DNA of 60,464 nt, counting the filler, from Vannella sp. (taxonomy: Eukaryota): NCBI GenBank assembly GCA_023345925.1. It is 5 parts of 5 records of this genome, joined end to end, with 100 filler letters (N's around TTAATTAATTAA, not from the genome) between each part and the next. Parts side by side here need not be neighbours in the genome. Positions count along the whole stretch, not along the records: positions 11,205 to 26,322 come from JAJQQN010000351.1; 4 more parts are not named here. One strand, written 5' to 3'. The translations under genes and the position numbers were made by a program. Below, piece after piece: positions 3,182 through 36,438 of this stretch. Numbering within the stretch: the stretch's first letter is position 1; the number at the start of each line of letters is the position of its first letter. The notes beneath the pieces were generated by a model that worked only from the letters and a program-made list of their open reading frames with translations, ran no database searches and was not told the DNA's origin.

Positions 3182-6100
3182 TCAGAGTTGAAGGATCCCG
3201 TCGAGAATGCTGCAGACGACTAGGATAAGAGACCCTTTCTGGTTCTGGTGGAATTGGTCCGAGTTGGAGAGAGTGGAGAATCCAATAGTGCCCATGTGCT
3301 CCTTTGTGAGGCTCACTACAGGACTAGTAGACTCGAGGCCAAATGTGTACACTGAATTGATGAGATCCATGGAGATCGAAAGCATTTCCTCGTTCTGGGA
3401 AGCGGTGAGAATCTGTTCTAGCTTTGGCATGAGAACGTCAAAGGTGACTGGGGAGCATTCTGGCAAGCTCCTGAGAATCTCCTCTAGCTTTGGCATGAGA
3501 ACGTCAAAGGTGACTGGGAAGCATTCTGGCATAAAGTGAGCGCCCTCATTCAGTGTGCGGTAAATGTACAATTGCTCGTGCTCCGACTCGGAGCTCTTGA
3601 GGATCGTGCCGAGGTACATAAAGACAAGAGCTCCTCGAGTCTTGTCAGGCACCATCTGTTCATTAAACAGAGAGTTCCCAGATTCAGAGCAGGAAAGAAG
3701 TCTAAATGAAGTGAGTAAGTCACTTTCGATACCTCCCCTCCTGACCTACCTTTGTTGACAAGCATCACTCAAATTATCTCCACAGTGGGGAAGAAGGGCT
3801 GTAAGGTATCCAGTGACATTGGCAGGATTACTCTCGCAAGAGTACTCAACAAAGGTGTTCAGAAGGCGGGTGGACGCAGACTTGGTCAGGACAGTCTTCA
3901 GGCCTTTGAGTAAATGGCCAGCAACGGCGAAAGAAAAGTCGTATCGGAAGCTGATTCCAGACAGTTGGTCCAATTTGTTGAGCATTCCCTCGTACGGGCC
4001 CTTGCGGTTGGCCATGCAATAGCCTGCGAGCCCCTTTTCACGATACTTGCCTTGGTCCGCCATTGCCCTCACAATTTGGTCGAGGAAGTTCACGCAAGCA
4101 AGGAACAGCTTCTTATCCTGGATTTGGCACAAACTCATGGCAATCCAGAAGAAGGACTGATAGTACTTTGAGTCAGGGCGGATGTGAGTAAAGTTGCGGC
4201 TCAGGCAGCTGATGATGGACACTGTCAGCTCGTCTATCTTATTCTAGGCTAATGTTAGTCCTTCCCAGTTCATCAGAGAGGCTTGTGAAGTACGAACCTT
4301 GGTGGCACAAGTGGCAAGTGCATCTCGAAGCAATTTGATCAAGTTACGAACCAGATCTTCGGAAATGAGAGTGGGCGATTGAGCAAGAACACCAAGAGCT
4401 ACAATAGCTCGTGGCTGCAGGAGGGGATTGGGGAGGAACGCTGTTTTCGTGAACAAACTTAGTAGGCGGGCATGGCGTGGTGTGCCAACACAGTTTGCCT
4501 CGACAGTGGTGCAGTTAAGTACCTGATAAAGGTATCCTGCCACGTTCTCTGTTTGAGCCAGATTAACAATGTCAAGTCGATTACCCCATTTGCTGGGGGG
4601 CTGGAAGGGATCATACAGCACTTGCCCACCCACACCAAACTGGAGCTGAGTTGGGAGCTCTTGATACTCGTTGAATTTCAGGCGCAGAATACCAAGCTTT
4701 TCCTCGTTACAGACCTTGCTGGAAAAGAGAGAATGGACAATGTTAATGAACAAGGCACACACAGTCGAGTGCATGAAGGAATTGCCAGTAAAGAAGGTCA
4801 TTTGAATGATATGAAGTAACTCGGGAAGATATGATTCCACACAGAGCAGATTGTCAAAGGAGAGGATGAGAAGCCACTTGAGAAGAACTTCTATTTCCTT
4901 CCAGACAGGATGGTCTTCAATGCGTTCACATGGCGTTCCTTGGCCCGTCTCTTCCAGCCGTCGTAGAAGGTGATTGATAATCTTCCCAGTAACAAGTGAG
5001 GCATTCACTGACGCAACTGACGCAATAACATCGTCAAGACACCCAATCGTATCGTCATTGTGGGCGGGGAGTTTGTAGGCTTTGAGGAGTTGCTCGATGG
5101 TAAGATCTAGTACCCGTGTACATCGGCCTAGGAGTGTCCAAACCTTAGTATTGATAGCTGGGCGAATCACGTCGGCTTTGATGGAGAACGTGACCAACTT
5201 TTCAAAGATCTCAATCATCTTAGTGTTGGTTTTCTCTTCGTCCGTGTTCTCACCAAAGAAGAGAGACCCGTAGTTCCAGAGCCACGGTTTAATGTAGTCG
5301 AGAACGAGGACTTGGGAGACTTTGTCAGCATTGGACATTCCATCTAAGGACTGCTGAAGGAACTCCAAAGTCATTCCAGGCTCCATCTGAGCCAATTCGC
5401 TGCTAACACGAACAGTAAACTGTTTTGAGCTCTTTGGAATGGCAGCTTCGTTCGCTTCCAACAATACAGACTGAATCTTGAAGGAGAAGGTGTGACACAG
5501 GGCAACTAGGAGGTTATAAGCAGCAGCACGGAGAGCATGATTGGAGACAGTGAGATTCATCAGTGCCATGTTCAAGAGAGTTCCGGGGACATCTGAAGGA
5601 CGGAAAGCTTTGCTGCGAAGGAGTGCCCCTTGAGGAGCAGACAGCTTGTAGCGATCTCTGAAGGCAATGAGCTGCTGAGAGATTTGATCCTTCGCCTCGC
5701 TGATAATCTCAATTGAGCGCTGACCGTCACCAACTTGGTAACGGATGTTCAAAAGATTCGAGTTGGCCTGTTTGGTGATATCCACCAAGCTGGAGACATG
5801 AACAATGTCTGTCACAATGGCAGCAGCCCCAAGAATGGGTTGCGGCTTCAAAGAGATCAGATTAATCGCATCCGAGCAGATCACAAGTTTCGCTTCTTTC
5901 TTACTGTTTTGGGTTATTTTAGACACAGAAAAGGTGGATTGAACGGTGGCAACCATTGATATAGTATCAAGAGGTAGTTTGCACTCGTCCTTGGAGATGA
6001 AAGTGTGAAGATGAGCCACGTCGTTACAGAACACGAACTTCCTATTGACTCGCGGGACGTGTCTGGCGATGTTCTTTGAGTACTTCTTGAACCAAATATT

Positions 6101-9100
6101 TGCGTTAATAAAGTACACAGCTGAGATGTTGGAAGAGGCCACCGACGGCATGATTTTGCTAATGAGAGCAAGAGCAGTGTTTGACATCTGATGTTGTGGC
6201 GTGAATAACGTCAAGTCAATGACCATGGCGTAGGGCTTTGTCAAGTAGTTGCGCGTGGTTTCGAGAATGAAGTAAAAGAGAAGATCATCGTTGGAGCCCG
6301 GGACGTATCGGCGAGCAATGTAGTAGAAGACTGGCTCCTTCTTGATGGTGTTGCCTTGTTGGTAGTAAATCTCGCGGCTCTTTATCTCGTCCGTGTTCTT
6401 GTTCGCCATACGGCCCATAAACTTTTCGAATTGTTTCTCACTCGAGCCACTGATAGCAGCTTGGCGCATTTGAACTGTCTTTGTACTCTTTGGGAGTTCT
6501 GGAGGAGCCCCCAGTTGAGCCAGAATACTTGTCAATCGAGTGACTGTGTCAGGGGAACCTGCCAGCTCCTTGGTTATCTTGAGCAGTGAAGTACTGAGGT
6601 AGTAATGAATGCGACCAAGATCTTGCTCTTTTTGCTCGTCAGAGAAGGTCATAGGGACGGGTTGAGGATCATTTTCAGAGACAACACAATACACGTCGAG
6701 TAAGTCTTTGATCTTGGGGAGTCTCTCCTCAATCCAAGGGTTAAGGCAGTTCATGAAAGGCTCTTTGGTGAACTGGACTCGATTGGCCAAGTTTTGGATC
6801 ACTTTTGTGACCAAAATCAAACACCTTTGCAGTGGAGGTGCCACGTTAGTGTCAATCACACCAAATCCAAGAGGAGCAGTCAAAGCTGGGCAAAGATAAC
6901 GAAGGAATAGGAAGCCTGCCACTGCAGTGTGCCCTGCTTCAGGGAACTTAGCAGTCACTGTGGTACTGAGGAATTCGCAAATCTGCCGGAAAGGTGCAGG
7001 ACAGTAAGGAATGGACGCTTCTATATCGTCGAGGAACTCTTGTGAGAGTCTGCTGATGTTGGCTTGGTTCTGGACAAGGTCTTCTCCTTCAGGTAACTTT
7101 GAGGGGTCCATTTCAAAGGATGGGGTATGCTGCATGAGTTGCTTGATGCGCGGTCCCAACGCAATACGCAAGTAGTCTCGACCAACAAGACGACAGTAAG
7201 CAGCCAACAGCTTTGTGGCCATACTGTTCAATCGGAAAAGAGTGTTGGCAGCTTCCGTCTTCCGTACTTCAGCAGAAATGGCCGCTTTTACGAGATCCAA
7301 TGTCTTTTCATTGGCCTCAAAAAAGCAAGCCAATAGCTGACACATAATCTCTGCCTCAGTGATTGGTGTGACATCGTTCAAAGCAAGGACAACCTCGAGA
7401 CTAGGTTCCAGAAGGAGCTCTAAGAGCTTGTAGTACTTCTCACCTTGCTCGCCAGAGTCAAAGTCAGAACGCTCTTTGAGAATGTTCGTGAGAACTTTCA
7501 AGAAAGAGGAACGAGTCTCATGATCTTTGTGATAGCCCATTGTAACGAAGTACTCAAGCCCATGTTCAATGTTGGCAGTTACCAGATAACTGAGCGACTG
7601 GATCGTTGCCTCGGGTAAGGCAGGAGTCAGAACTGTTTGTGGAGCTTGTTTGCACCGAGTGAGGAGCCTTGTGAAGAAGTTAAAGAACTTTGAGAAGAGC
7701 TTCGACTTGATTTCATCATCCTTACCCGAGAGGGTCAGGCCCTCCAGCAGGGAAGAGATAGCTCGCATAACCTGGCAGTCCAACTCCTTCACCAGTTTCT
7801 TTAATTGGCGGCTATCAGCCTCAGAGAGATCTGCAGGGAGATTAGAATCCTTTGTAGAGAACTCCGATGTCCATTCCATGATATATTCAATCAACTCTGT
7901 GCGAAATTGGCTCTCATTGTTGAAAGAAAGACTGCTCTTGTGCGCCATGACAGACTCTAGCAGTGCACAAAATTTGTGGCGGATCTGAGCAGAGTTGGCG
8001 TTAATCGTGGTTTGGCGAACAAACTTGAGAAGCAGATTGACGATATCTTCAATCCCCGTGATACCAGAGAAGTCTCCGTCTTCATGTTCACTGTCGAGCA
8101 GTAACTTGACCGTTGAGATGGCCTGCTCTACGAGAAGGATGGTCTCGTTCGTGAAGGTAGCTTGCTCAGAAGTTTTGAAGAGCTTCTCTTTTGAGTAGCT
8201 TTCCAACGCGTTGAAGAAAAGAGTGTAAATGTCTGGACTAAGGGCATTGCCCAACATTTGCTTGACCTTTTCGCGGATGCTGACGAACTCGCTTGTCAGG
8301 AACTTCATTAGTCTCTGGATGAACTCAGAAGGATCTGACATTGATGCAAGCTTGTTTTGCTTCTCTCCCTTGGTTTGACTGGAGGAAAGAAGGACTGCTG
8401 AGAGGGAACAAAGGATACCAAGAGTGTTAGTCCACTCAGCTAAGGTTTCTGCCGCACCCTTTGCGTCATAGTCCAACGGCTTTCTACTTTTGCGAGTGTC
8501 GCTTTGTTTTGCAATAGCAGCCTCCTCATTGGCGACGACTTCGTTCGTTATTCCTTGCCAGCGCTTGTAGAGCTCGTCCCATGCAAGGAAGTTTCCAACA
8601 GTTTGGTTTTGAATCTTCTTGAGAGCATTTTGAATGATCTTCTGCTGAGCCTGCCGGCCAGTGAAGTTTGTACTAGCGTCAGCAAGCATCTTGTATGCAT
8701 CGAAGTTGCAAATCAGAGAGCTGTCAGCCTCTGTGAGACAATGGCGAAGTAGCTCTATCTCTTTGCAAGAGTATTTGAAGATATTCAGGCACTTCGAGAC
8801 GATTTCGTTGTTCTTGCTCCCCAAGAAGATCAGAATGGAGGACTCCATTGCAGAGCTGGCCATCAATCGGATAGGCCTGCTGGATGGGTTTGGCTCAACA
8901 TGAGCCGTTTGCTCGATAAACTGTACTCTGAACGAGCAGATCTGCTCAATAAGGTCAATGACTTGCTCGACTGCTTCCAGGGTAAGATCAGGTCGATCGC
9001 GAATGCAATTGCCCAGCTGATTAAGAACTCCAGATGAGATCTCCCAGAATCCTACAATCGGGTCCTCTGGGTGCCATCTATTGATGAACTCTGTACTGTG

Positions 9101-10920
9101 AATTTTGAGCAGCGCGTCTCGACCAAGAGATGAGACATCTGTGATGGTGAACTCCGCGACACACTGGCAGAGACCACTCAAAAGGGACCGAATGTCCGAG
9201 ATATCTTTGGAAGAGTTCTTCTGTGGAAAGAGGGCCAGGATGGGATCCACACGGAACAAGCCAATCAAGTTCTTGAGAATGTCAATCTCAGAAAGAGCGC
9301 GTTCCATAGCGACTTTGCCTTTCTTATCTGTGGAGTTACGGAGGCTCTGGAACTCTTCCAAGCGGGGCAGCATCGTTTGGAACATCTGGCGAAGGCTTCC
9401 TGCATGCGCTGAATAAACATCCGCAATGGTGGGGTTCCAGGGCAGGGGATTTTCGCTGGCAATACGGAAGAGCGCGTTCACTAGAACTCTCTTAAACAGT
9501 GGAGGACTGCTGGGTTTGACACATTCTGCAAACAAAGAATTCACAATCTTCCTCGGGGACAGGAAGAAAGAAGAAAGCAGAAAGTCTGACATCAACCGCT
9601 CGTCAAAGCCTGCTTCAGACTTGGAAGCAGCCGCTGCATTGAAGAGGCGCGTAGTCAAATCAGACTCTGTGTTGGTGAGCATGAACACAAGAGCAGACTC
9701 CGCCGACTTGGCATTGTACGTTGAAGCTTTGCAAACATCCACAAAGCAGACAGTAGCAACGTCTGCCAGCTTAGTTGTGGTCAGTCCCTTCTCCAAACCC
9801 TCAAAGAACTTCTTTTTGTTGGCGTTGTTGCCGTTACTCTGCTTCTGGAGGACCACTTGCACCATAACATCGGGGCAGAGGATGATAAGCATAATCATGG
9901 TTGGCCAGAAGCTTGCTTTCTTTGCGGAGTTGCTCGCAAGACCATCAAACACATCAAAGAGGTCCTCTGCCTTGCTGCAAAGCTTGCGCTTCTCCTTGCA
10001 GAGGGCAACAAACTCGTGAGGGTAGCGATTGATCCAGTTCCAGATGATCTCACGCAACACCTTGGCGTAGGCAACTTGCGCATTCGACTTCTTCGTGGAG
10101 CTGATGATGGGGCAAAGGATGGTCAGTAGGCGACCCAGCTGCTCCTGGTTGAGATTGAGGAACTCGAGAAGAACACCATAAGTGAGCACGTCTTCTTCTG
10201 ATGAGGAAGAGGTCAGATAGGGCAGCACACGCGCCAAAACGTCGTCGTGGTTGGACGCCGAAAGCTGAAAGAGGCAGCGGCTGGCTCGATTGTGCAATGG
10301 TTTAGCGAAAGGAGAAGTTGACTTGGACGTCAGGAAGGTCTCCAGGCTCTTGTAGAGCTTGCCGCACAAGGCTTGACTGAGGGAAGGAGGTAACGCGGCC
10401 TCCACCTTCTCCTTCAGACGAAGGAGGTCTTCCTTGCTCAATAGCTCCTCTTTCACTGTGCGGTAGTTTTCCTTCTACTCCCTTCTTGTTGGTGAACCTG
10501 GCCAATGGACGAAGGTGAGACTTACGATGGTGTCCCAAGGACAAGCCAGACAACGCTCGAGGACCTGCAAGAGTTGAAGCTGAGACTTTGAAACACGTCC
10601 CATGTCTTCTTCGGAGTTGATGGGAGCCTGGAACCGCATTAGCAAGGGAGAACGGGAACGGAGGAACGCCCACATTGGAAATCTTCGCCAGCTCGTCCAG
10701 GAGTTTGCTGGCGACAATGTCAGTCTTGAAGGCGCTAATGTCTACCAAAGCGTCTTCGTTCTGCTTTCCCAGGTCGGCGTTTTGGAACCGCTTGCTCTGC
10801 TTGTAGTACGGAAGCTTCACTCGCGTCAGCATCTCCCTCACAAGACCCAGAGGCCCTCCCTACCTCAGCAGAGATCCTCGAGATGACGTGGTCAACAAGA
10901 GTTTCCTCCAAATCAGCCAT
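3182..10920 (-). CDS. NF1: Neurofibromin-like RasGAP (HEAT scaffold + GAP-related domain + Sec14/PH), multi-exon
   Basis: Arginine finger TLFRLNSMATK, FLRYLCPAL, KVIQNLAN; Sec14-like YQQGNTIKKEPVFYYIARR; NF1-typical RPSDVPGTLLNMALMNL and LRAAAYNLL; ORFs 10735-10923, 10302-10841, 10475-10717, 4244-10456, 3746-4222, 3182-3655 join through short introns. Confidence 0.93.
3406..3531. repeat. Tandem duplication with 66-bp period inside the last NF1 exon
   Basis: 3406-3465 vs 3472-3531 match at 57/60 nt; encodes PEC[F/S]PVTFDVLMPKLE twice. Confidence 0.9.
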
Positions 10921-13550: not shown

Positions 13551-14850
13551 ATGGCAACCCCCTCCCAAACCTCCCAACCTACAGAGGGACGCGTCGCCTT
13601 CATTACTGGTATCACAGGACAGGATGGAAGCTATTTGGCTGAGTTCCTGTTGGAAAAAGGCTACTTTGTGCATGGCATGCTCCGGAAGTCTTCAACCTTC
13701 AACACCAGCCGGATCGACCATTTGACGAGCGACTCTCACTCCAAGGATAGAAGTAAGGCCTAATTGATTTACCTACGATTTATCCTGATGAGTACAGGGT
13801 TCTTCCTCCACTATGGAGACCTCACCGACATGGCTTCCCTTCACAAGCTCATTTCTACGATCCGTCCCGACGAAGTCTATAACTTGGCATCGCAGACGCA
13901 CGTGCGCTTCTCGTTCGACCACCCCGTGTTGACTGCTGAGTCTACCGGTGTGGGAGCCCTTCGCCTCCTTGACGCTATTCGCAACTGCGGCCTCGAGAAA
14001 ACAGTTCGCTACTACCAGGTAATATGTTTAGAAACTGAAAGCTCTTTGATGCTCACTCAACGTCCCCAAAGGCCTCCACCAGTGAGCTTTATGGAGAATC
14101 ACAGGTGATCCAGAACGAGCAAACTCCCCTCAACCCTTGCTCTCCCTACGCCATCGCTAAGGTTCGTACTTTGGTTTAGACCTTCTATGGTACAAGTTTA
14201 ACACATGTTGTAGCTGTTTGCCCACTACACCACCATCAACCACCGCAACGCTTACAACATGTTCGCCTGCTGTGGCACCCTGTTCAATCACGAGAGTCCC
14301 AGACGAGGAGAGACCTTTGTGACCCGCAAAATCACCCTCGGTGTTTCGAAGATCCATGTGGGTGTCTCTGATTGCATCTATCTCGGCAACATCGACTCCA
14401 AGCGCGATTGGGGACATGCCAGAGACTATGTGGAGGCTATGTGGTTGCTTTTGCAGCAAGAAAAGCCCCGCGACTACGTCATTGCCACTGGTTACACTGT
14501 CACCGTTCGCTACTTTGTGGAACAGGCCTTCAAGTGCATTGGTGTTACCATCCGGTGGGAAGGTGAGGGCGTCGACGAGATTGGTATCAACGCAGAAACT
14601 GGAGCAGTTGTTGTCCGTATCGATCCTCAGTACTTCCGCCCTACCGAGGTGCCCTTCCTCTGTGGTGATGCCTCGTTGGCCAACAAAGAGCTTGGCTGGG
14701 TTCCGAAGATCTCTCTTGAGGTGAGCCCCGTTCATCCCTTTGACAAACAACCAGTAAGCTAACCCATTTGTCCAGGAAATGTGCAAGGAGATGGTCGAAA
14801 GTGACTTGAAACTGATCAAGTTGAGGGCACTGGAAAAGAAGTTTGCCTAA
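13551..14850 (+). CDS. gmd: GDP-mannose 4,6-dehydratase (4 introns)
   Basis: [69 protein letters not shown]. Confidence 0.96.
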
Positions 14851-15099
14851 GTTAACTTGCTCTGGTTCTGCCATCATTCATGGCTGAGCCAGTTATTTAA
14901 TCCTCTCGAGGCACATACATCATCCTTTCCATGTTCCACACTTGTGAGCCCGTCTTAACCCTGCTTGCCAGACAGAGGCTGGTGATGGGCAACTCTTTGG
15001 AGGCTGAAAATGGCGCATGCGAGGCCCGGAGACTCGAATTGAAACTTTGCAGATTATTTATGGTCGATTTCTAAAGGGGACTTACAATTTCATTCCATC

Positions 15100-16224
<1,125 letters not shown>

Positions 16225-16280
16225 TCTGAATTGCTCAGGAAGGAGGGCGGCAACACTGGCACTCTAAAAGGGGTTCCCAC

Positions 16281-17222
16281 TCAACTTCTTTCACTTTTCA
16301 TCCTTTGGAAGAGCGCTCTGAGAGCTTGATCGATCGGGGGAAGGTCAGGATACTCTGCCAACAGTTTGGTGACATCCAGAAAGGTGTTTGACCGAGGTGC
16401 AATGAGGATACGAGCCTGTTCTTCCTCCGTAAAGTTCTGCCAGGTGAAGGAGGGGTCGATGAGATCCTGATAGAGCTGAAGGAGGAAGTTGTGAGAGACG
16501 CAGCCAGGGTTGGTAAAGTTGTAAATGCCCGTTCTCCCCTTCGCACAGAGGTCCACTGCCAGAGGAAGGAGATCTGTCAAGACACTCATTGAATTGGGCA
16601 CGTCCACCACCCGCTCGTAACCGATCAGTTTCGTTAGGAGCGATCGCTCATGCAAGTCATCAGACAGTGGCATCCTCAACCGGAGGATTAGACAAGAGGG
16701 GTAATGCTGTAAGAGACCTTCTGTTACGGCTTTACTGTAGGAGTAGAAAGAGCCCTGAAAGTTGGGAGAGTCCTCTTCGGTCACTCCCCGCACGGACGGA
16801 AGCGGGCATTCTGTTGGGTGGGGCGTGGGAAATGTGGTACTGTACGTGTAGAGGCAACCCGTACTAAAGTAAGTGAGATGCACTCCCAAGCTTGCGCAGA
16901 GGGAGGCAACATTCAGAGCTCCTATGACGTTTGACTGGAGGGTTTCGTCCTTGTGGGTCTCACACCAATCCACATTAGGTCTTCCCGTCTTTCCCGCACA
17001 GTTGATTACACGCCACAGAATAGAGCGTGGAGGGTTGTGCCAGTTTCGCATCTCTTCTTCTACTTGAGCCCGGTTCTCCAGTCGGGCGAGGCCAGCCACC
17101 ACCTGCATTTGCTCTACCTCGGACGAACTCACCCCTTTTAATAGATCCACCATCTTCCCACCCACCCAACCACTCGCTCCATACACCAACACCACCCGAA
17201 CCACCTCCCTGTCGGAGTCCAT
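16281..17222 (-). CDS. UDP/dTDP-4-keto-6-deoxyglucose 3,5-epimerase/4-reductase (NRS/ER-type, L-rhamnose synthesis), intronless
   Basis: VYGASGWVGG, NCAGKTGRPNVDWCE, PNFQGSFYSYSK, LRLRMP, GIYNFTNPG, APRSN: motifs of plant NRS/ER and the RHM C-terminal domain. Confidence 0.92.
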   Translation of the reverse strand: MDSDREVVRVVLVYGASGWVGGKMVDLLKGVSSSEVEQMQVVAGLARLENRAQVEEEMRNWHNPPRSILWRVINCAGKTGRPNVDWCETHKDETLQSNVIGALNVASLCASLGVHLTYFSTGCLYTYSTTFPTPHPTECPLPSVRGVTEEDSPNFQGSFYSYSKAVTEGLLQHYPSCLILRLRMPLSDDLHERSLLTKLIGYERVVDVPNSMSVLTDLLPLAVDLCAKGRTGIYNFTNPGCVSHNFLLQLYQDLIDPSFTWQNFTEEEQARILIAPRSNTFLDVTKLLAEYPDLPPIDQALRALFQRMKSERS

Positions 17223-17351
17223 AGAAAGGGCTCGCAATGATAATGCCAATCCAAGGAGAGAATATCAATATCAGAGATGATAGGAAGAAAAATGGTCGCA
17301 CTTTTGAAACTGCGAAAAAGTTCCGAATTTTCCTGTTTTTTGGCTCCCGCG

Positions 17352-18892
17352 ATGGCGTACACCACTCAAGACTCTGGAGATCTCTCCACTACCGACTACC
17401 GTTTGTTTGCGAGTGCGTTAAGCTCGGGAAGAGTAGGTGTGATAACTGATGGGAGAATGGCTAGAGAGGGATGGAAAGTTCGTGTCCTTCCTGCATGACA
17501 TCCCCCTTTACGCCAACGAGGAGAAGACAGTCCTCAACATGGTCGTGGAGATCCCTCGTGGCACCAATGCCAAGATGGAGATCTGCCTGAGCGAGGAGGG
17601 AAACCCCATCAAGCAAGACGTGAAGAATGGAGCTCTTCGCTTCGTTCATGACATCACCCCTTACTCTGGTTACATCTGGAACTACGGAGCGCTACCTCAG
17701 GTGTGTGCTCCCTCGCCTCTCTTTGCCTCTGCTCAATCTCGCCCTTAGACGTGGGAAATGCCAACTCACAAGCACCCCGACACCGGCTACTATGGTGATA
17801 ACGATCCTCTTGATGCCTGCGAGATTGGAACTGCTGTGGGAGTACGAGGGCAGATCAAGCAGGTGAAGCCTCTTGGTGTGATGGCGTTGATCGATGAAGG
17901 TGAGTTGGTCCCCCTTCCACTCCTAGCAAGGCGGCGTGTCTTACCTGTGGCGTGAAGGTGAAACGGATTGGAAGGTTCTTGTCATTGACGTGACCGATCC
18001 ACGAGCGGACGAGTTCAACGACATCAGTGACGTGCAAAGACTCTTGCCTGGGTTCACCATGGCCACTTACGAGTGGTTCCGAACGTACAAAATCCCTGCT
18101 GGCAAGCCTGCCAACGAGTTTGCATTCGGTGGTGAAGCCAAGGGGCGCGCGTACGCTCTTGACGTCGTTGCTGAGAACTACGAGTTCTGGCAGCGCCTCG
18201 CCACTGGTGCGATGCCACCAAAGGGCGACAAGTACAACATCAGCGTGTGAGTGCATTCCATCACTTCTGTTGCCACTCACCAACAAGAACGCAGCGCCAA
18301 CACAACCCTCGAAGGCTCCTACAAAGTCGACGAGCTTCAGGTCGCCCTGAAGGAGTTTGTCCCTGTTGCCACTCAAAAGGCTGCAGAGCAAGCTGCCCCT
18401 GTCTCTGTCAAACAGATTGTGGAAGAGAAGCAACGAAACTCTCCTCACGGAACTGCAGAGCTCTCTCAAGTGGTTCAAGCTTTGGCTGCTGCAACTCAAA
18501 AGGCTGTTTCTGCAGGCCCTGCAGGCATTGCTGAGGTCCTCAAGGCTCAAAACTTGGCTGCTGTTTACAGCTCTGAGAGTGAGAGCGCCTTGTCAACAAA
18601 TAACGAGGGCCACTACACAGTCTACTTCTCAGCCAAGGATGGTTTGGTGACTTACGGAGTTTACCAAAAGGCCACCACTCACCGCATCGAGTTTAACCTT
18701 GCCAATGAGGTGACAGCAGCTGGGTATGATCTCGTTGCAGCTGCTTTTGCCCGCGCTGGAAAGTTCACTTTCTCCACTCGCCACGGCGCTGTCAGTTTTG
18801 GTGCTGAAGGGGTTGTCGAGGCGGACGCTGTCCCCTCTGTGGAGAGCGAGAGCCTTCTTGCAGTCAAGGCCCCTTTGGCTTTTTTTGCCTAA
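17352..18892 (+). CDS. ppa: Family I inorganic pyrophosphatase with ~190-aa C-terminal extension (degenerate FBPase-like domain)
   Basis: [62 protein letters not shown]; intron 18247-18294 links in frame to ORF 18251-18892. Confidence 0.9.
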
Positions 18893-18987
18893 CAACCTCC
18901 GGAGGGAGAGGGATCTTCTCTCGGCTTTAGAGAGGTGGAACGAAGGAACTAAACTTCAGGAAACGGAATAAGCGATTACGGCATTAT

Positions 18988-26422: not shown

Positions 26423-29400
26423 AGGAACTGGTCACGTTCTTGAGGCCAACACGTGCAATCCTTCCACTCTCATCGCCAATGGCATTGCTGTATTCTCTCA
26501 GTAAGGAAAGAACCTCTCTTCAGCTTCTCTCCTGACCATCTCCCGCAGGGAAGACGAGTTTCTGTGCGAGGCCTCCTCGAAGGACTCTGTCTCCGTCCTC
26601 GAGCAGCCAGCTCAGTGTCGAGACGCTCGTTACTCATTCACTCGGTGGTGCGGCGTGCAAGGCATGGAGTACTACATTCTGATCTCAACTGTCAAGGGAG
26701 GCTCGGGTCTTCTTCAGGTAGAGGCTGTGGATGAGCCTTGCGAGCGAGGTAAACCAATGCAGGACCTTTTGAGTGTTAGCTAACAAGAGAGTGCAGCGAT
26801 TCTTGATGGAAAGTGCGCCAGACCCTTCCCAATCGCCCTCAGCGAGGGCGAATCATTTGTCTTTGCTGATGATTTACGTTCTGATGTGGCCAATGCAGTT
26901 GCTTTACCGTCATGCGTGAAGAAGATTGGTGGACAGACTGTTACTTGGTTCTCGTGGACGGGAACTGGGCGGAGCGTGCTGTTGGACACCGACGGATCCG
27001 AGTTTGATACTCTTTTGGCTGTTTTCACGGGTTCTTGTTACGACCTGTCATGCGTTCGTTCTAGTGGTGAAGGATCATCGTTCCGCGTCTCGCTTGTCTT
27101 CTGCAGTGAAGAAGGAAGAGAGTATTTGATTGCCCTAGGAGGCTTTGGATCAACTGTTGGAGCCTTCAAACTTCGTATGGAAGATCTGAATGATTGCCTT
27201 CAAGCTCCCAATCCCCAAATTGCAAGCAAAAGGGAGCCTATGACCTCCCATCAGGTAGGAGACTTGACTTTACTGCCAAGCTTCGTGGTGGATTTGCTCC
27301 CTTGTCTCTCTGATTCACGTTTTGCCAAAGGTGCCTGGTATCGCTTCTTTGGCAACGGCTTGATGACAACAATCAGTTCTTGTGGATCTTGTAGCCCAGT
27401 GGACTTGCATGTTTATGAAGTGCTCGAAGGGAGCTCTCTCCGCTGCGTTTCTCGTCCTGAAGAAGAAAAGAGCTTGGTTCAGTGTGAAGAAAGCCTCTCA
27501 AGTTGTGAACGGAGCATTTTCAAATCTTCTCCTGCTATTACTTTTTGCAGCAATCCGGAATCTCAATACTATCTGGCAGTAGTTGGGTCTGCAGCAAACG
27601 CTTCTCACTTTGTTGCCACTCTTGATTCTGAGGGCCCATGCTTACCAAATGATGATCCATATTTTGCCACTCCTGTGTCTGTTGGAATTCCCTTTACCAT
27701 GAGCACCCAATTCGGGTTCACTTCTGTTGCTGATCTTCAATGTGACTTGTTCACTGATGGTTTTGGCAGTGCCTGGTATCAGATATCTGGAACTGGAGGC
27801 CTACTCTCTGCAGCTGTGTCTACTACTTCGCAGTTGACAATGCTAATTTTCGCTGTTACTGAGGGTTCGATCACTGAATGCACTGCTGGTGGCCAGATCT
27901 TGGATGGTTCTCTGGATTTCTGTACTGAGATGGGGCGCACTTATTTGATCTCTTTGGGTGGTCAAAGTGGAGGAGTTCGGGCATCAATAACTTTCAATGA
28001 TGCGGGGGATTGTTCGAAACAGAATAACTCTATTTGTTCTCGAGCTACTCCCCTTGTCTTTTCAGCATCCCCGATCGTGGTAGAAGGTGATGTTATCAAT
28101 TCTTCTGGAGAATCTGGTCTATTTCAATGCGGAGATGTCCGGTTCTCTCCTCCACACTACGCTTGGTACTCTTTCGTTGGTGAAGGCAATCTTGTTCATA
28201 TCTCTTCTTGCAAATCAGAGTTTGACACCATACTAGCAGTCTTCGAAGGTGGTTGTGGCTTTGGCTCCTGCGTCAAAAGCAATGATGATTCCACTGAGTG
28301 CTCACCAGGATCTCAAGTTGATTTCTGTGCCCTCACGAATGTCAAATACTATGTAGTGATTGCTGCAAAAAGCTCTCCAGGCTCTTTTGAGGTTGTCTTT
28401 GAAACCCAAGGGCCCTGCGATAGAGAAACTATTTGCCAGTCTGCTGAGCCATTGGAATTTGGAAGTTTGATGGTAGCCGTGACCAGCAATCCTTCCACTG
28501 TTGATTCTGTCACACAAGGTATTCCACAATGTGGTCAGATCCCACTGCGAAGCCAATGGTTTTCACCCCCTTCTCTTGATAGCAACAACCTTATCTCTAT
28601 TTCTGTGACTCAGAAATCTAATCAACCTGAAGTGACTTTAGTGACATTCACCTCTGACTGCACCTCAACTCAATGTGCCACTTCAATCTATTCCGCATCC
28701 AACAATTCAAATCAAATTGTCTGCACGAGCATTGGCAGCTATTTTATTGCAGCTTTGATCCCCGAGGATCGGAGTGAGTCATATCAGCTAACCACAAGAA
28801 CGATGATGGAATCTTGCGGGAGTGCCACTCTCACTAGTTCATGCGAGCAGGCCAATGTCATTAGTAGATTACCTCACGTCTCATTTGTCGAACCACTTCA
28901 ATCCGCCTCTTTCTTTGAACCTGTCTGCGGTTTTGCTTCTTCTTTTGCTCTTAACAGTGGAGTGCTTTTTGAAGGGCAAACTTGGTTCACTATCATCGGT
29001 TTTGGCGAACAAATCACTGCTACTACTTCCTACAACAACCACCAATCAAACATTTGGTTCAGCCTCTTTCGTGAGAGTTGCAGTTCAAGACAATGCGTTG
29101 CAACCGCAGTGAGAGTGATCTCTTGGTGTGCTTTGCGTAGTGAGCAGTATTTTGTTCGGGTGGGAAGTGTTGGTAAAGCTGATTATGAGCCTTTTGAAAT
29201 TCAATGGTCGACCGAAGATGTCTGTGCACCTCCTTCAGTCCAATCCATCTTCATAGCAGATCGATCAAAGAGTTCGCTCACTCTCCGTTGGGACCCACCA
29301 GAGTATTCTTATCCAATGACCTACACTGTAACTCTTTACTTTAATTCTTCGTTGGCACAATCGCAGGATGTCAACACCACAGAGGTCTCCTTCTTCGGTC

Positions 29401-32400
29401 TAGAAGGAAATCAGTATCAAGTTGGACTCGTAGCTCGTTCTGGCTTTGGAAAGAGTAATCTTACACGAGTAGATGTTACTATGTCGACTGGTGACTGCTA
29501 TTCTACTCTGATTAACGACTTGCGTGGCAATAGGAGGATTGAGGATAAGAATCTTGAAGTTCTTCGAGGAAATTTTTTCAAGCCACTTGCAAGTTCCGTA
29601 ATCCATTCTGTTGAGTTTGAGATCCCCTTGGATGTCGTGAATGTTTCTCCACTAATCCGGTTGTATCTTTTCGAGAGTCTGGATCGACCATTCGAGCGTC
29701 TCAACCGGATTAGAGTTGCGAGTGGGTTTGCTGATTCGCAGCTGATCCGTTTTGGGAATCTGCAATGGAAACTTTGCGGAAACCGCCAGTATGCAGTGAT
29801 GATCGATTTTGGTGGAAAGCTGTTCTCTTCCACTGTGGCAACTGTAGAAAGCTGTTTGGGCTCATTCCAAGGACTTTCGGTCAGCTCCAGAGTTTTGGGA
29901 GGCTTTCGCCGCAGCATTTGGTTCACAAATGACAGCGCTACGCAGATTTATCCAATGTCTATTGATACGAGCACACTTCCAGAACTGGATGGCCCAGAGG
30001 CTCCTGATATCATCAATGTGAACTATAGAATAGACTCCTTAATTGTGAGGTGGATCCCGCCCTGTTCAGATCTTCCGATTCAGTCGTATGAAGTTGCCAT
30101 TTCTCCACTTTTTGAGCCGATTACCAAGTCTCCAGGATCTCGCGAGCATGTCTTTTACTCATTGACTTTCGGACAAACATACGAGATTCGCGTGATTTCC
30201 ATCGACAGTGGAGGAACTAGAGCCAGTTCTAGCAGTTTTAGTATATTACCCCTTCCTGAGTTTGTTCAAAAGTGGTACACTCGTTCTGATCCTGAAAAGT
30301 CGATTGGTCGAAGCTATTTTGAAGATGGTTCTCTAGCCTCTGATGGATCTGCTGTCATGGTAGCCAGGTTTGACGGACGAGTTACGTTCGAATCGTATCA
30401 GTTTGAGGCACTGCGCCAGGCTGTTGACGGAGTTGTAATCAAGTACACTTCAGACAAAGAAATCATGTGGGCTGTTCACATCGGTAAAGGGGTTTCCGGC
30501 GCTCTCTGTGTATCCGTTACTGTTGACAGTATTGGAGACGTGTACGTGTTGGGCCAATTCAGAGGAGATCTTCAACTCGGAGACAGTGAACCAAGCTTTT
30601 CCTCCCTTTTCCCATCGAGTCAAAGCATCTTTTTGGCAAAGTATAATGGCATGAATGGCTCTCTCCTCTTTTCGAAGCATCTGGGTAATCCAGTCGGCTC
30701 GGACCAATTCGCTGGATCTGTCACTGTAGATTCTCAAGATCAAGTTATCATTTGTGGAGACTTTGATGTATCCAGCGCGCTACTTTTCTATGAGGATAAT
30801 GTTCGCATCGCTCCTTCAGCCTTCAGCAAAACCATCCACACTCTAGTGGCCAAGTGGGGAAAAAATGGGAACTTCATTAATGCCAAATCAATCGGAGGGA
30901 CAAAAGGGAAGACTACTCTTGGGCGCTCATCAGTAGGCTCTGACAGCCAAGGCAATATTTATCTTGCTGGAGACTATTCTGGCCAGATTATTACTGATAC
31001 AATCTCGCTCATTCGCGACGAAAAACACCACACTTTTGTGGCGAAATTCGATTCTCAGCTCACTTTGATTTGGATGTGTGAGTTCGGCTCTTCGTCTCTC
31101 GAGGGCAAGAGTGAGAGTACTTCGATTTCAGTTGATAGTGTGCGTGGTGTAGTTGCCATCGGAGGTCATTATCAAGGAGTTTCTCAAAAGCTGTTCTCTT
31201 CCGATAATCAAGAAACTCCTATTCTAACGAAAGGAACCACATCTGGTGGCTCGATAGTAGTCTTATCTACAAGTAATGGCACACTTCGATGGAGTTCTGA
31301 ACTGCTGGCGTCAGTAGATGCAACAATCACTAGTCTCGCTTTTACTCCAGAGGGATACCTCATTGGGGTGGGCTATTACACCACGACGATTCCCTCAAGT
31401 TATAGCTTCTTCGAAACAAGTGGATTGCTCGACTCGGTTGAACCCTCTGCGTTCCTTATGAACTTTGACAGTAACTTTGGTTTCATCCGTTGGATTAACT
31501 TTTTGGGATCTTCGTCTGAGGTACAGAAAGCAACATCTGTGAGCGTTCAAGGAACCAGCCTTCTTGCGGTCGGCTATTTCTATGGAAGCGTTATTGTGGA
31601 CTGTGATCTGACTTTACTTTCAGACGGCTTTTCCGCATTTGCTCTTTATAGTACTTCTCCACTTCTTACAAACTACATGCTGGCTCCACCCCCTGCATCA
31701 GATGATAGCAGTGCGTGTACTTTTGAGTATCATGAGCTATTGGGATCCATCACATTCCCAAAGGACAGTTTTAAATCGTACCCAAATCAGATCAATTGTA
31801 CCTGGCTTATACAACTGGAAGACGTTCCCCATTTAATGGGCTACTTCGATGAATTCTCCCTCGCAGATCCTAATGACATTCTCTCAATTCATGATGGACC
31901 ATCTTTATCTGATCCCATAATCAACTACTACGACGGCACTACAACTTTGGTCAGAGACGGCGTCCGTGAAAGTTATGACGATCCTAGTGGCCGAATTTTA
32001 GTCAAATCTACTGGCTCGTCAATTCTTCTTCACTTCCAATCAAATGAATGCAGCCGAGGAGCTGGATTCTCATTCCGATGGGAAGCTTCCCGTAATGCTG
32101 CCTACTGCAACAATGATTTCCCCCAGTATTTGACCCAAGAAAGTGGATTGGTATCTCAGCGGATCAAGGGTGGTTACAGAAATAACGCTGACTGTTTGTT
32201 TTATATTCAACCAACTAGCAGTAGGTTTGTCATTCTAGAGATGACTATTTTTGATCTTGATTCCAACGACTTTGTGGAGATATGGGACGAAACAACCAAG
32301 TCACTGCTGACAAGAGTAAACGGAACATTTTCGGGGACCAAGTCAAGACCCTCCTTACAGTCATTTGGAAATAGTGTCAAGCTTCGTTTTGTTTCGGATT

Positions 32401-34883
32401 CAAACAGGTTTGACGAAGGCTTTGTGGTGACATATCGAGGAGCAGATGTAAATCCGTATTGCCTACCAAATCAAGTCGAAACTCTTGAAACTGGCATAAT
32501 TCAGTCTCAAGTAGGACCCAAGTATGGGCCTATTTCTGAGTGCTCTTGGGATATCTCTCTTTCCCAAAACGTTGACAGTATCTATCTATTCTTTGGAGAT
32601 GATTTCAATGTCAAAAAGCCTGGACAAGTCACTTTATCATTGGATCGCCAGACAACAACAGGGCTGCTTCGAGAAATCGTTCCTGTTCAACTGAATAACT
32701 CAATTTTTATCTCCCAATCTAATCAAATGAGAGTAGATTTTTCTGCTGCTCTTACTCAGGCGAGAGGATTTAATGCAACCTATTGCGCTCATTCTGAGCC
32801 ACAGTGTAGTTCTACTCAGTTAACTCATGACACAGCATCCTTCAATAATCACTTCTGTGGTCTATATTATGAGTCAAATAGTTCGTGCGAGTGGCTTTTC
32901 TCCCCAGATTCTCAAGAACAGATTTCTTATCTCATGATCACGTTTCCATTGGTAGATTTACTCAACACACCAGGATCGCCACCAACAGATGTGGTTCGGA
33001 TCTTAACAGGCAACAATGAAGATTTTACCGAAATTGGGAATCTTACCGAAGCCAAGAGTCCAAACTCTTCTACATTTGTTACAAAAGAGTCTTCTATCAA
33101 GGTTTCTTTCGAGTCTGATGCTTTCGGAATAGCAACGGGCTTCGAAGCAATCGCTTGTGCTTCTCTGGTGGACACTCGGACTGAGTGCCATGGTCTCGCC
33201 TCTTTAGATCAAGCAAATGGTACTTTTGACAACATTTTCTGTGGAACTATTTATGGGGCCAATGCCTCTTGCCTTTGGGAGACTCCGCCTGCTCAAGTTA
33301 AACTCGGAATGCTCATTTTTTATGGCATTAGTTTTGCTCCTGAGGAGTGGACTGGAAAAAGCTGGTCTGATAATCTCGTTCTTAGAACCAATGGTGTCGT
33401 AGCAAAAACATTCAATTATGGTGGTTCGCACGAAGGGAACACTCCATCACAAGACCAGCAAGTCGGTAGGACTATTGAAAGAGTGGAGATTTTCTCTTTC
33501 TCTCGCTCAACTGTATCTGTTTCATTCACCTCTGATGATGCTGGTTTTGCCTCTGGGTTTGAGGCAAAATATTGCCTCATGGATCAGGAAGATAAGCGTT
33601 TGTGTCCTGCTAGCGAGGTAATGAAGAGCAACTATGGTTCATTCAACAACCATGCATGTCAAGGATACTACCAACCAGATGCAGATTGCACTTGGATTAT
33701 CCGCTCTCGCCAACAGATGGACACACCAATGGATATTGTTCTTTTTATCAACAGTGCAGACTTTGCAAGTAGCGAAGGAAAGTTTCCAGATGGCATCGCA
33801 ATTTACTCCAGCCGACTCTTGTCAGAAGAGTTTTTGCTTGGGGCTTTTGATCGCACTTCAAAATATTATTCCGAGCAAAGCGATTTCCCTAAAACCTTCC
33901 TGGGAACCGACGAGATGGCCGTCCACTTTAAATCTGACGCGACAAACTTTGGAACTGGATTTGACGCTCAGTATTGTGTAATTCCGCGCCCTGCATTCTC
34001 TTGTGGAGGTAAAAAAATTATCACAAATGCTTCGGGTTTGATAAGAGATCATATCTGTGGTCCCACTTACTATGCTCCAATGGATTGTTCCTGGAAAATT
34101 GAGCCGGATGCCGCCTACCAATCTTCTTACATTATTCTGGTAATACGTTCCTTAGACATCAGGGCCGGAACGGTGCTGGAGATCACGACTAGCTCATTAG
34201 ATAAGAAGTCGTTTTCATCCGAGGATAATGCAGAAGGAATCTTTTTGCCTTTCACCTCAGCGAGTGTTGATTTGCGTTTCATCGTTGACAGTGCAGCCAT
34301 TTTAGGAAGCGGATGGGAGATAGAATACTACGCAACAAACAGCTTAGGCTTTTGTACTGGAGAACAGTCATTCTCTGATCCTCAAGGAGTGATATCTGAT
34401 CATACCTTCGGAAGCCTCTATCAAAACAATCAGTTGTGCAATTTCTTGATTTCTGTGCCTTCAGCAAAGACGCTGACGATCCGCTTTGACCACTTCATGT
34501 TGGAAGATGGCTTTGATTTTCTTGAGATTTATGATGGGCCAAGCTGGGATGCAGAGTTGATTGTTTACGAAACAGGAAATGTCGCTCCAAGAACTTTCAC
34601 TTCCAGCGGATCATCTGTTTACCTTACATTCCGCAGCGATGAAAGCATACAAAACACTGGCTTCCAACTCTTCTACTCTGATAGTTCACTTCTTGAATGC
34701 CCTCTTTACTGCTCTGGATATGGTGAGTGCACAAACGGTATCTGCCGTTGTGATAAGGAGCATTATGGTCTTGGATGTGAGATTGGAGAGGCTCCAGCGA
34801 TTCGCACAGCTCGTTTCAGTGATTCTCTGGACACTATCATTGCCATTTTTGACAAACCCTCGAACAGGAAGGGAATGTTTGGC
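26423..34883 (+). CDS. Giant extracellular mosaic protein (Cys-rich repeats, FN3, beta-propeller-like repeats, 8 CUB, EGF), truncated at both ends
   Basis: Repeats such as FDT(L/I)LAVFxGxC; FN3 SLTLRWDPP and SLIVRWIPP; DSQGNIYLAG-type propeller repeats; eight CUB units (Y.NN..C.W.I ... F.SD....GF); CSGYGECTNGICRC EGF; exon of about 8 kb. Confidence 0.85.
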
Positions 34884-34983
34884 NNNNNNNNNNNNNNNNN
34901 NNNNNNNNNNNNNNNNNNNNNNNNNNNTTAATTAATTAANNNNNNNNNNNNNNNNNNNNNNNNNNNNNNNNNNNNNNNNNNNN
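34884..34983. other. Artificial contig linker
   Basis: N44-TTAATTAATTAA-N44. Confidence 0.97.
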
Positions 34984-36385
34984 TGTCTTTGGTCGGTTTT
35001 TTCTCTCCATTGCGATGCTCGATAAGTCCAGATAGTTCCTCTCGGAGATAGTCTTTGATTGATCTCGAAGACATTTCAATGAGAACCAAAAGCTTTGCCC
35101 AAGTATATTCTGCGGTATTCCTCGCATGGTAGTACTTGTAAAGTCCTCCTAAGTAACGCAGATTGACTCCTCTGAAATGAAGAAAGTTGACCAAGTCGAA
35201 ATCTGATCTTTCGGATTCAGGTATCTTCATGTCTCCCAGTTCCCTGGCCAGCCTGGGTAGAAGTGTGGATCTCAAGTAGTCAGTTGCTGAAGTCACTGCA
35301 TCATCAATCCTCCCCTTAGCATTCACAGAAAAAGGATCTGTCTTGACCTTGTATATAAACTGAGTATGAGCGTCAGAGACAAGTGGCTCAGGCTTGTAAC
35401 TGCGAAGAAACTCGGGCCTCAGTAGCTTAAAAAGGTGATCAAGCGTCTCCGGTGGCGGCTCTGATGGAGGAAAGGTCCGGCTAAAATCTAAAAGAACAAG
35501 CGGTGTCTCCCTCTTCAACTCTTTGCCTTCAAACCCTGAAGGGCAGTGGACCTCCAAGTCAATGGGGAAATGAAACTCCTTAAGATTGGTAGTCGGATGC
35601 TTGTCGCCCTCGTTTACTCCAACCAAGTGAGTCCCCAAATTGAGCTTCGAAGCCAAAGCCTTCATCCTCTCGTTGACCATGGGAGAGTATTTGAGACCCT
35701 CAAATGTTCCATTGGGAGTACCATGAACCAGGGTCTTCTCTCCAATAGGTAACTTGGCTATTCCCAGCACACGGAACCCACAAAAGTCCACCAAAACCGT
35801 CATGGGGAAGATCAGATTGGGCTCCCTGCATTGATAGAGTTGGACGAGGCTACGTAGCTCATGTCCACTCACTTTGGAAGACTGAGCACGCTGCATCTGG
35901 TATTTGCCTATCTTGTTCGCCACAGCGAGCTTGAACACGATCCCTTGGGAGATGAATTTCTGTCCTCCTAGCTGGCCACCCATCTCATCCGGCTTCAACG
36001 TCTTCTCTTCAGTAGGGAGGCCAACTTCAGAGATGATTGTGCGGGCCACGGCCTCTGCAGTGGAGCGGAAGTCTTCTGAAAGGTTGACAAGGCGCTGTTG
36101 GGCGGTTCTTTGGTCTTCCAAGGAGGAGTTGGAATGGAGAGCTTGGATGCCTCCCGACACCTCTTGAAACAAAGCGCTCCAATCTGTGTCAGAGCCAACG
36201 ATGGGGGCGACAGGAGGCGCTGTGTCCACCCTCGCCAACTTTGTCTCCGCTGGCTCCTCCGCAGAAGTCCCAGAAGGTCTCAAACGCTTGTTACCTAAGG
36301 TTGGCATCCCATCTACAGCTGTAGACACACCAACGCCGGTGCTTCCTTCACTCTCTCCCACCTTTAAGTCCTCCTTCAAGGACAT
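34984..36385 (-). CDS. CLU (clustered mitochondria/Clueless)-domain protein, 3' truncated
   Basis: DFRSTAEAVARTII, GGQKFISQGIVFK, GHELRSL, PMTVLVDFCGFRV, LLDFSRTFPP, LLRPEFL, LHFRGVNLRYLG. Confidence 0.85.
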
Positions 36386-36438
36386 GGCGCTCTCGAGGGG
36401 TGGCCAAATGAATGAATGTGTCAGTCTGACGCAAAGAG

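Follow-up and report, generated by a model that had tools for sequence, protein, structure and literature searches.

Is the inorganic pyrophosphatase (PPase) gene at positions 17352 to 18892 of the window, the 60,464-nt stretch of Vannella sp. DNA that was analyzed, really joined to a piece of a second enzyme, and what could such a piece do for a PPase? Cytosolic PPase pulls every biosynthesis that releases pyrophosphate (PPi), and family I PPases are usually regarded as unregulated single-domain proteins. An earlier reading, made from the sequence only, proposed that this PPase continues into an apparently dead N-terminal domain of fructose-1,6-bisphosphatase (FBPase).

Gene structure and splicing

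The locus consists of five exons, all on the + strand, which splice into a frame of 444 amino acids with no internal stops. Exon 1 (17352..17412) starts with the ATG at 17352 and encodes the PPase N-terminus, which matches the N-termini of the relatives P0001 and P0005. Exon 2 (17465..17700) encodes the equivalents of E48, K56, E58, R78, Y89 and Y93, with G at the position of yeast W52; exon 3 (17749..17899) encodes the DxDxxD signature; and exon 4 (17958..18246) encodes the equivalents of D147, D152, K154, Y192 and K193. These labels (E48, K56, D147, etc.) give the active-site residues in yeast numbering. The last exon is open throughout 18295-18892, and its first part (18295..18391, +) encodes the start of the PPase C-terminal arm and a linker, protein residues ~246-278.

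The genome around the locus is compact and its introns are short. Introns 1 to 4 all run GT..AG, with lengths of 52, 48, 58 and 48 nt in order. An alternative acceptor of intron 1 at 17456 is in frame; 17465 suits the length of the relatives. Intron 4 (18247..18294, +) contains an in-frame TGA at 18248-18250, and the fusion is therefore dependent on splicing. The intron and the frame running on to 18892 lie exactly where the sequence-only reading had placed them.

The fusion in related amoebae

The fusion of an intact PPase with an FBPase remnant is real and is conserved in Flabellinia amoebae. When the last exon was searched against longer proteins (7998 candidates scored), 12 protein clusters of 378-460 amino acids, all with PF00719, covered 77-100% of it at 49-63% identity. 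One of their members is UniRef100_A0A7S4IMC1 of Vannella robusta, and the sources of these members are rich in transcriptomes. UniRef names the fused proteins plainly as "inorganic pyrophosphatase," and the second domain is invisible to Pfam. Two intronless contigs of relatives, L001 and L003, encode the PPase and the second domain in a single frame, and the junction aligned gap-free at the intron position in all three contigs of relatives. Thus the clusters and these two contigs carry both parts in one chain, as had been claimed. The earlier reading had named use of the TGA at 18248-18250, which would leave the domain unfused, as the result that would speak against it; in the relatives, the intronless contigs cross the junction in one frame.

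A search with the PPase part found the second domain in 25 of the best 120 of 3606 matches, and none contained a recognizable intact FBPase. The suggestion that other protists might carry an intact PPase-FBPase fusion thus found no example among them. No algal full-length fusion appeared among the best 120 of 3606 PPase matches or the 11 domain-profile matches. To obtain the latter, the domain profile was run with HMMER against 1.84 billion representatives at E <= 0.001; all 11 were fusions of the same kind or fragments, one cluster including a protein of Vexillifera abyssalis. More diverged fused forms of 401-473 amino acids, one from Clydonella sp. ATCC 50884, were present among the matches listed, so that the fused relatives span 378-473 amino acids overall. 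Vannella, Clydonella and Vexillifera all belong to the Amoebozoa, Discosea, Flabellinia, and the fusion has been kept across two orders of Flabellinia. All near-complete close relatives have the FBPase-derived domain. Two sequences from one metatranscriptome collection (P0064 and P0065) stop early, in the linker or at the start of the domain. A search for relatives in viral contigs found none.

Three source labels among the fused proteins fall outside this pattern: two name libraries, of Tiarina fusa and of Gloeochaete wittrockiana, and the third an "archaeon" metagenome-assembled genome (MAG). PMC11631190 reports a co-cultured amoeba and discosean sequences in the transcriptome of G. wittrockiana SAG 46.84. 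The G. wittrockiana match comes from a library with another number, and amoebal contamination of this kind is likely for it. The protein with the "archaeon" label, MDP2436838.1 (P0189), is a 470-residue member of the fusion family on an 8282-nt contig and was apparently called as one frame. It clusters with the Vexillifera protein in a tree of PPase cores (support 98), and its contig is probably a mis-binned amoebal one.

In that tree, a quick search with 64 PPase cores, a single branch (SH-aLRT 98) held the 26 fused proteins and, beside them, a lone non-fused row on a long branch. The protein of the window grouped with that of V. robusta within a branch of nine (support 99), so that the source of the window is likely to be a vannellid. 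Because the outgroup was fungal and animal, with no non-fused amoebozoan PPase, the tree gives no date for the fusion, and the fused clade may merely reflect the kinship of the organisms. No description of a PPase-FBPase fusion was found in the literature covered, which was limited to the main text of open papers. Neither "bisphosphatase" nor "fusion" occurs in a 2024 review of PPases (PMC11210485).

The pyrophosphatase half

PF00719 matched three exon pieces at more than 23.5 bits each and full-length relatives at 133-158 bits. P0005 aligned with S. cerevisiae Ipp1 over residues 1-251 without long gaps (E 2e-91). All 26 fused proteins, that of the window included, have the DxDxxD motif, given as the PPase signature in PMC8386120, and none of them varies at a further 13 positions of the active site. 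By these residues, the first half is an intact eukaryotic family I soluble pyrophosphatase with all catalytic residues present, and hydrolysis of PPi is predicted.

Three positions or segments distinguish the fused PPases from a non-fused set that is almost entirely fungal and animal. First, tryptophan at the W52 position was found in 0/26 fused and 36/36 non-fused rows. Secondly, histidine at the H87 position was found in 0/26 fused and 33/36 non-fused rows. Third, the C-terminal W-aromatic-aromatic arm was absent from all 25 fused proteins and present in 56 of 70 non-fused PPases. The W-F-F arm is typical of fungal and animal family I PPases, not of the whole family. In yeast PPase, W52, H87 and W279 are dimer contacts. 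Most eukaryotic PPases are homodimers, and the activity of human PPase requires a contact between Arg52 and Asp281 (PMC8386120). Asp281, judged by its residue number, falls within the C-terminal arm.

Five unrelated proteins among the PPase matches listed contain two tandem PPase domains (P0062, P0063, P0067, P0069 and P0070, from Hydra, a psyllid and others). The W52 tryptophan is also missing from P0063 and from one of the two P0069 domains. Since tandem PPases of other lineages lack this tryptophan too, the loss of dimer residues is weak evidence for what the second domain does, and the loss of W52 may predate the fusion.

Ancestry of the second domain

The second domain, of 166 amino acids, derives from a class I FBPase. 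With the last exon alone, Pfam gave no FBPase, the only match being a Borrelia lipoprotein below the cut-off (E 0.0037), and a sequence search of the PDB gave no matches. A 12-sequence profile searched against the PDB returned FBPases as 26 of its 27 matches, yet only at E 0.48-1.2. In hhalign against 24 prokaryotic class I FBPases, domain residues 4-137 aligned with E. coli Fbp 2-179 (probability 95, E 3.3e-8). A comparison of profiles of 28 and 33 sequences gave a real score of 56.5, whereas 60 column shuffles averaged 14.1 and reached 24.6 at most. The motif pairs that had been aligned by eye in the earlier reading fell in the identical register in both the HMMER and the hhalign alignments.

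A domain model built from 26 family sequences, with an alignment free of FBPases, reached pLDDT 84.4 and pTM 0.81; a single-sequence model reached pLDDT 34. The model was submitted to Foldseek, a check that the earlier reading had proposed, and the FBPase fold was recovered with pig and human FBPase at the top (E 2.3e-7). In a structure search of 48,161 representative chains, the top 23 belonged to the FBPase/SBPase/IMPase superfamily or were GlpX, and the first unrelated chain had Z 4.8. The best representative chain was an SBPase (Z 14.4, 146 aligned residues, rmsd 3.0), and human FBP1 (7c9q) matched the model with Z 15.1 over 153 residues (rmsd 3.3, identity 24%). FBPase and SBPase are tied by structure; the motifs PHGT.ELS, Y113 and GxY side with FBPase. 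Fold and profile, the latter with its shuffle control, thus agree on the class I FBPase origin first proposed from the sequence.

When the 44 rows of an alignment were searched, PF00316 matched no more than 11 of them at E <= 1, and even the best match (E 0.0023) fell far short of Pfam's cut-off. Weak Pfam matches to other families were also found, for example to Longin in 8/44 rows (best E 0.00018). Longin and the others were set aside because the fold searches indicate FBPase. In the ESM Atlas, no score exceeded 0.80, and the clusters matched were bacterial and unrelated.

Internal deletion and the retained helix

The FBPase-derived N-terminal (AMP) domain occupies 18392..18802 (+), its residues 1-137 corresponding to E. 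coli Fbp 2-179 minus deletions. Compared with FBPase, ~29 residues comprising the dynamic loop and the start of helix 3 are absent, as are 10 more after the DPLDG position. The deletion of the catalytic loop region seen in the earlier reading is therefore present in the hhalign alignment as part of these ~29 residues. A 16-residue linker (18803..18850, +) then replaces ~91 residues of the FBPase C-domain, and 13 residues and the stop follow (18851..18892, +).

This tail corresponds to a helix of the FBPase C-domain (E. coli 271-283, pig/human 276-288), in which E280 has become V; the model places a helix at 155-165 with pLDDT ~87-91. The structural alignments begin at model residue 1-3 and reach its residue 166, which is paired with residue 288 in pig and human FBPase and 283 in E. 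coli Fbp. When a profile of the tail was slid along the FBPase profile, the best position was E. coli 271-282, RLLYECNPMAFL, with z 5.4. In controls with 300 shuffles, 1 was as good for a window of 12 residues, 12 were for 14 residues and 34 for 18, and hhalign gave P 0.03. The tail profile and the structural alignment agree on the register V158 = E280. The sequence signal alone is modest, and the identification of the tail as the E280 helix is convincing because the register of the structural alignment matches it, with the caveat that the domain model may lean on known FBPase structures. The contrary arrangement, in which the tail is the PPase's own C-terminal arm and the FBPase domain was inserted before it, was rejected, since 113-292 of 300 shuffles were as good against the 70 non-fused PPases.

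Overall, ~91 residues of the FBPase C-domain were swapped for 16, one helix was retained and the last 49 residues were lost, so that ~140 C-domain residues are gone. The sequence-only reading held that the C-terminal substrate-binding domain is missing; the substrate-binding part is indeed gone, but the E280 helix is kept as the tail. By model and alignment, the second domain is best described as an internally deleted miniature of FBPase and not as a plain truncation. The tail helix is among the best conserved parts of the family (A160 in 41/44 rows, P161 in 43/44). It is predicted from the model to cover the sheet of the N-domain and keep it folded, and high conservation of the helix would be expected if it does so. 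In the diverged members P0068, P0071-P0075, P0077 and P0087, another 20-35 residues are gone (helix 3 and the next strand) and ~125-145 residues remain, so that these members form a natural deletion series of the FBPase fold.

Loss of the FBPase active site

In FBPase, the ligands of the metal site include D118, D121 and E280, and D68 of the loop is critical (PMC5639204). These positions were examined in the alignment of 44 rows (A5), which includes near-copies, fragments and four rows without the N-terminus. Aspartate at D118 was kept in 2/44 rows and glutamate at E97, E98 and E280 in 3/44, 1/44 and 6/44, the E97 and E98 columns being gappy. R276 was R in none of 44 rows; D121 was D in 22/44 and either D or E in 28/44. 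The protein of the window has S/E at E97/E98, S/D at D118/D121 and V at E280, and its SAKDG (18629..18643, +) is what is left of the metal-binding DPLDG, D118 having become S and D121 being retained. The observation that the SEE and DPLDGS metal motifs are degenerate thus holds, with E97, D118 and E280 replaced.

To judge by these residues, the FBPase-derived domain would be dead as an enzyme. That it is still a phosphatase, of altered specificity, is scarcely credible: the acidic residue kept at D121 in 28/44 rows would fit such an activity, but D118, E97, E98 and E280 are lost in most rows, and neither loop 52-72 nor the C-domain that binds the substrate has survived. Sensing of a sugar phosphate at the old active site is also unlikely because the substrate pocket is deleted.

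Selection and the conserved face

Nonsynonymous divergence (pN) was 0.21-0.28 in the FBPase-derived domain, 0.09-0.12 in the PPase core and 0.35-0.47 in the linker, with pS of 0.59-0.87 in the domain, as measured in six pairs of four sequences in which synonymous sites are mostly saturated. The linker (18295..18391) is the fastest-evolving part, with 36-47% identity among the four sequences. The pattern of substitution indicates purifying selection on the domain.

This bears on the explanation that the domain is a functionless, decaying relic, or that intron 4 is often retained and a plain PPase results. The in-frame stop of intron 4 and the loss of further pieces in diverged members would be in keeping with it. 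However, the domain is present in all near-complete close relatives, has been retained across two Flabellinia orders with synonymous sites saturated, and has a confidently predicted fold. In addition, the stop at 18248 would truncate an N-x-x-x-E-G-S/P stretch that is conserved even in non-fused PPases. This explanation is thus largely refuted and very improbable.

The conserved polar residues of the domain are E11, Q14, P18, H19, S25, Y75, Y91, Q92, P96 and H97, which align at or beside FBPase positions 19-31, 113 and 139-145. Among rows with a residue at the position, Q14 is kept in 40/40, P18 in 39/40 and H19 in 36/40. Several of them lie in the conserved motif Q..xPHGT.xLS (18431..18466, +), which corresponds to the effector loop between helices 1 and 2 of FBPase, a part of both the AMP pocket and the dimer-dimer contact (PMC5639204). 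The S-P-H-G-T of the domain aligns with this loop, with Pro-His in place. In FBPase, helices H1-H3 form most of the dimer-dimer ("small") interface together with the effector loop, QPPHSRG, whose "His23 lock" reaches across it; the loop lines the AMP pocket as well (PMC5639204). Judged by alignment, the best conserved face is the one that serves in FBPase as both dimer-dimer contact and AMP pocket, and conservation therefore cannot tell assembly from ligand binding.

The AMP contacts themselves are partly kept. Those listed in PMC4822563 are V17, T27, E29, L30, T31, K112, Y113 and R140. The protein of the window has T, S, H, Y and Q at T27, T31, K112, Y113 and R140. In the family, T27 is T in 25/40 rows (with V, D, I, N, R or G in diverged members), L30 is L in 37/40, T31 is S in 32/40 and Y113 is Y in 35/44; K112 is K in 0/44, R140 is R in 3/44 and G28 is G in 3/40. 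At the AMP pocket, the family has conserved no basic residue that could compensate.

Possible roles of the remnant

The remnant may serve as a surface for subunit assembly of the pyrophosphatase, a tentative proposal to which we give a little under an even chance. An ancient fusion of PPase and FBPase would have come first, and the FBPase half would then have been trimmed to the helices (1-3) and the Pro-His effector loop that build the small interface. The PPase's own dimer contacts would be taken over by the pairing of two such domains, and a remnant that had replaced these contacts would be hard to lose. This proposal is supported by the fact that the retained parts are those of the FBPase small interface (PMC5639204). 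In its favor, the basic residues that contact AMP in FBPase and the relay loop have both been lost, as has the arm of the PPase itself. Against it, a part of the small interface, the helix 3/strand segment (domain 40-69), is missing from ~12-15 of 44 rows. Moreover, the larger FBPase interface, put at 3850 square angstroms compared with 2507 for the dimer-dimer contact (PMC5639204), is mostly deleted in the remnant.

The domain could instead be an allosteric sensor, in which the AMP pocket, remodeled with His/Gln, would bind AMP, phosphate, PPi or another phosphorylated ligand; this is possible, though we hold it to be doubtful. Equally doubtful is the route by which such a ligand would shift the effector loop and alter PPase activity, by analogy with the action of CBS domains on family II PPases. 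T27, T31 (as S) and Y113 are retained in most close relatives and L30 in 37/40 rows, and the best conserved polar residues, Q14, H19, Q92, P96 and H97, map to or beside the AMP pocket by alignment. Leishmania FBPase binds AMP though its K112 has become D (PMC5639204), and AMP-regulated PPases exist in the form of the CBS-PPases (PMC11210485). Against a sensor, the basic contacts K112 and R140 and also G28 are missing from nearly all rows, T27 is variable and nothing basic and conserved compensates; moreover, FBPase transmits the signal through the dynamic loop, which the remnant has lost, so that the signal would have to reach the PPase site in some new way.

Assembly is slightly favored over a ligand sensor, and these readings, with the docking considered next, are not exclusive. 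A ligand at the remodeled AMP pocket might move the Pro-His loop, shift the subunit interface and so tune PPi hydrolysis.

Lastly, the conserved face might dock on the PPase half of its own chain or on another protein, with a role in stability, localization or complex formation, which we consider unlikely. Strong purifying selection on a surface without a catalytic role would suit docking, as would the start of the domain ~33 residues past the PPase core, and FBPases have non-catalytic protein partners, for example in HIF binding (PMC6400660). A partner of this kind might be a functional FBPase of the amoeba or an enzyme that produces PPi; no separate FBPase was found elsewhere in the window.

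Neighboring genes

Directly upstream of the PPase gene, 13764-17264 contains genes for a GDP-mannose 4,6-dehydratase (+), a GDP-fucose-synthase-like epimerase (+) and an RmlD/epimerase-reductase-like protein (-, 16281-17264). The last lies head to head with the PPase gene, the likely starts being ~130 nt apart. In nucleotide-sugar synthesis, PPi is set free at reactions that precede the steps of these enzymes. Downstream, 95 nt (18893-18987) separate the PPase stop from that of a convergent 1595-codon frame with a Nup188 domain, and the transcripts of these two genes may overlap at their 3' ends. Elsewhere in the window, a 2715-codon frame with CUB and fibronectin type III domains (26784-34931) overlaps at its stop the stop of an opposite-strand CLU-domain frame (34928-36520). 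A 2076-codon frame (4244-10474) combines RasGAP and CRAL-TRIO_2 domains, a neurofibromin-like pairing.

Comparison with known systems and significance

The fused protein resembles eukaryotic family I PPases (S. cerevisiae Ipp1, 1m38/1huj; human PPA1, 6c45; PF00719) in its first 250 residues and its active site. It differs from them in having a 166-residue FBPase-derived domain in place of the W-F-F arm and different residues at the W52 and H87 equivalents. Its second domain shares the fold, the collinear motifs and the E280 helix with class I FBPases (pig/human FBP1, E. coli Fbp, Leishmania FBPase; PF00316) and SBPase, and its Pro-His effector loop is akin to that of Leishmania FBPase. However, it is half the size of a class I FBPase and lacks the metal ligands, the dynamic loop, the substrate pocket, K112 and R140. 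The CBS-PPases, in which a PPase also has an added domain of nucleotide-binding ancestry, are the model for a sensor (PMC11210485). Their catalytic and regulatory folds are unrelated to those of the fusion, and in them regulation is demonstrated. Pfam matched neither a family II (DHH) domain nor a CBS pair in the locus of the window, the relatives or the 44-row alignment.

An entire group of amoebae appears to have long kept a dead metabolic enzyme on its PPase. The fusion is a candidate shared marker for Flabellinia, and its second domain would be a natural minimal FBPase fold made of the N-domain and one helix. It offers a simple test case of whether the assembly and AMP machinery of FBPase can be reused on another enzyme. 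If the domain does act as a sensor, the fused protein would be a family I counterpart of the CBS-PPases.
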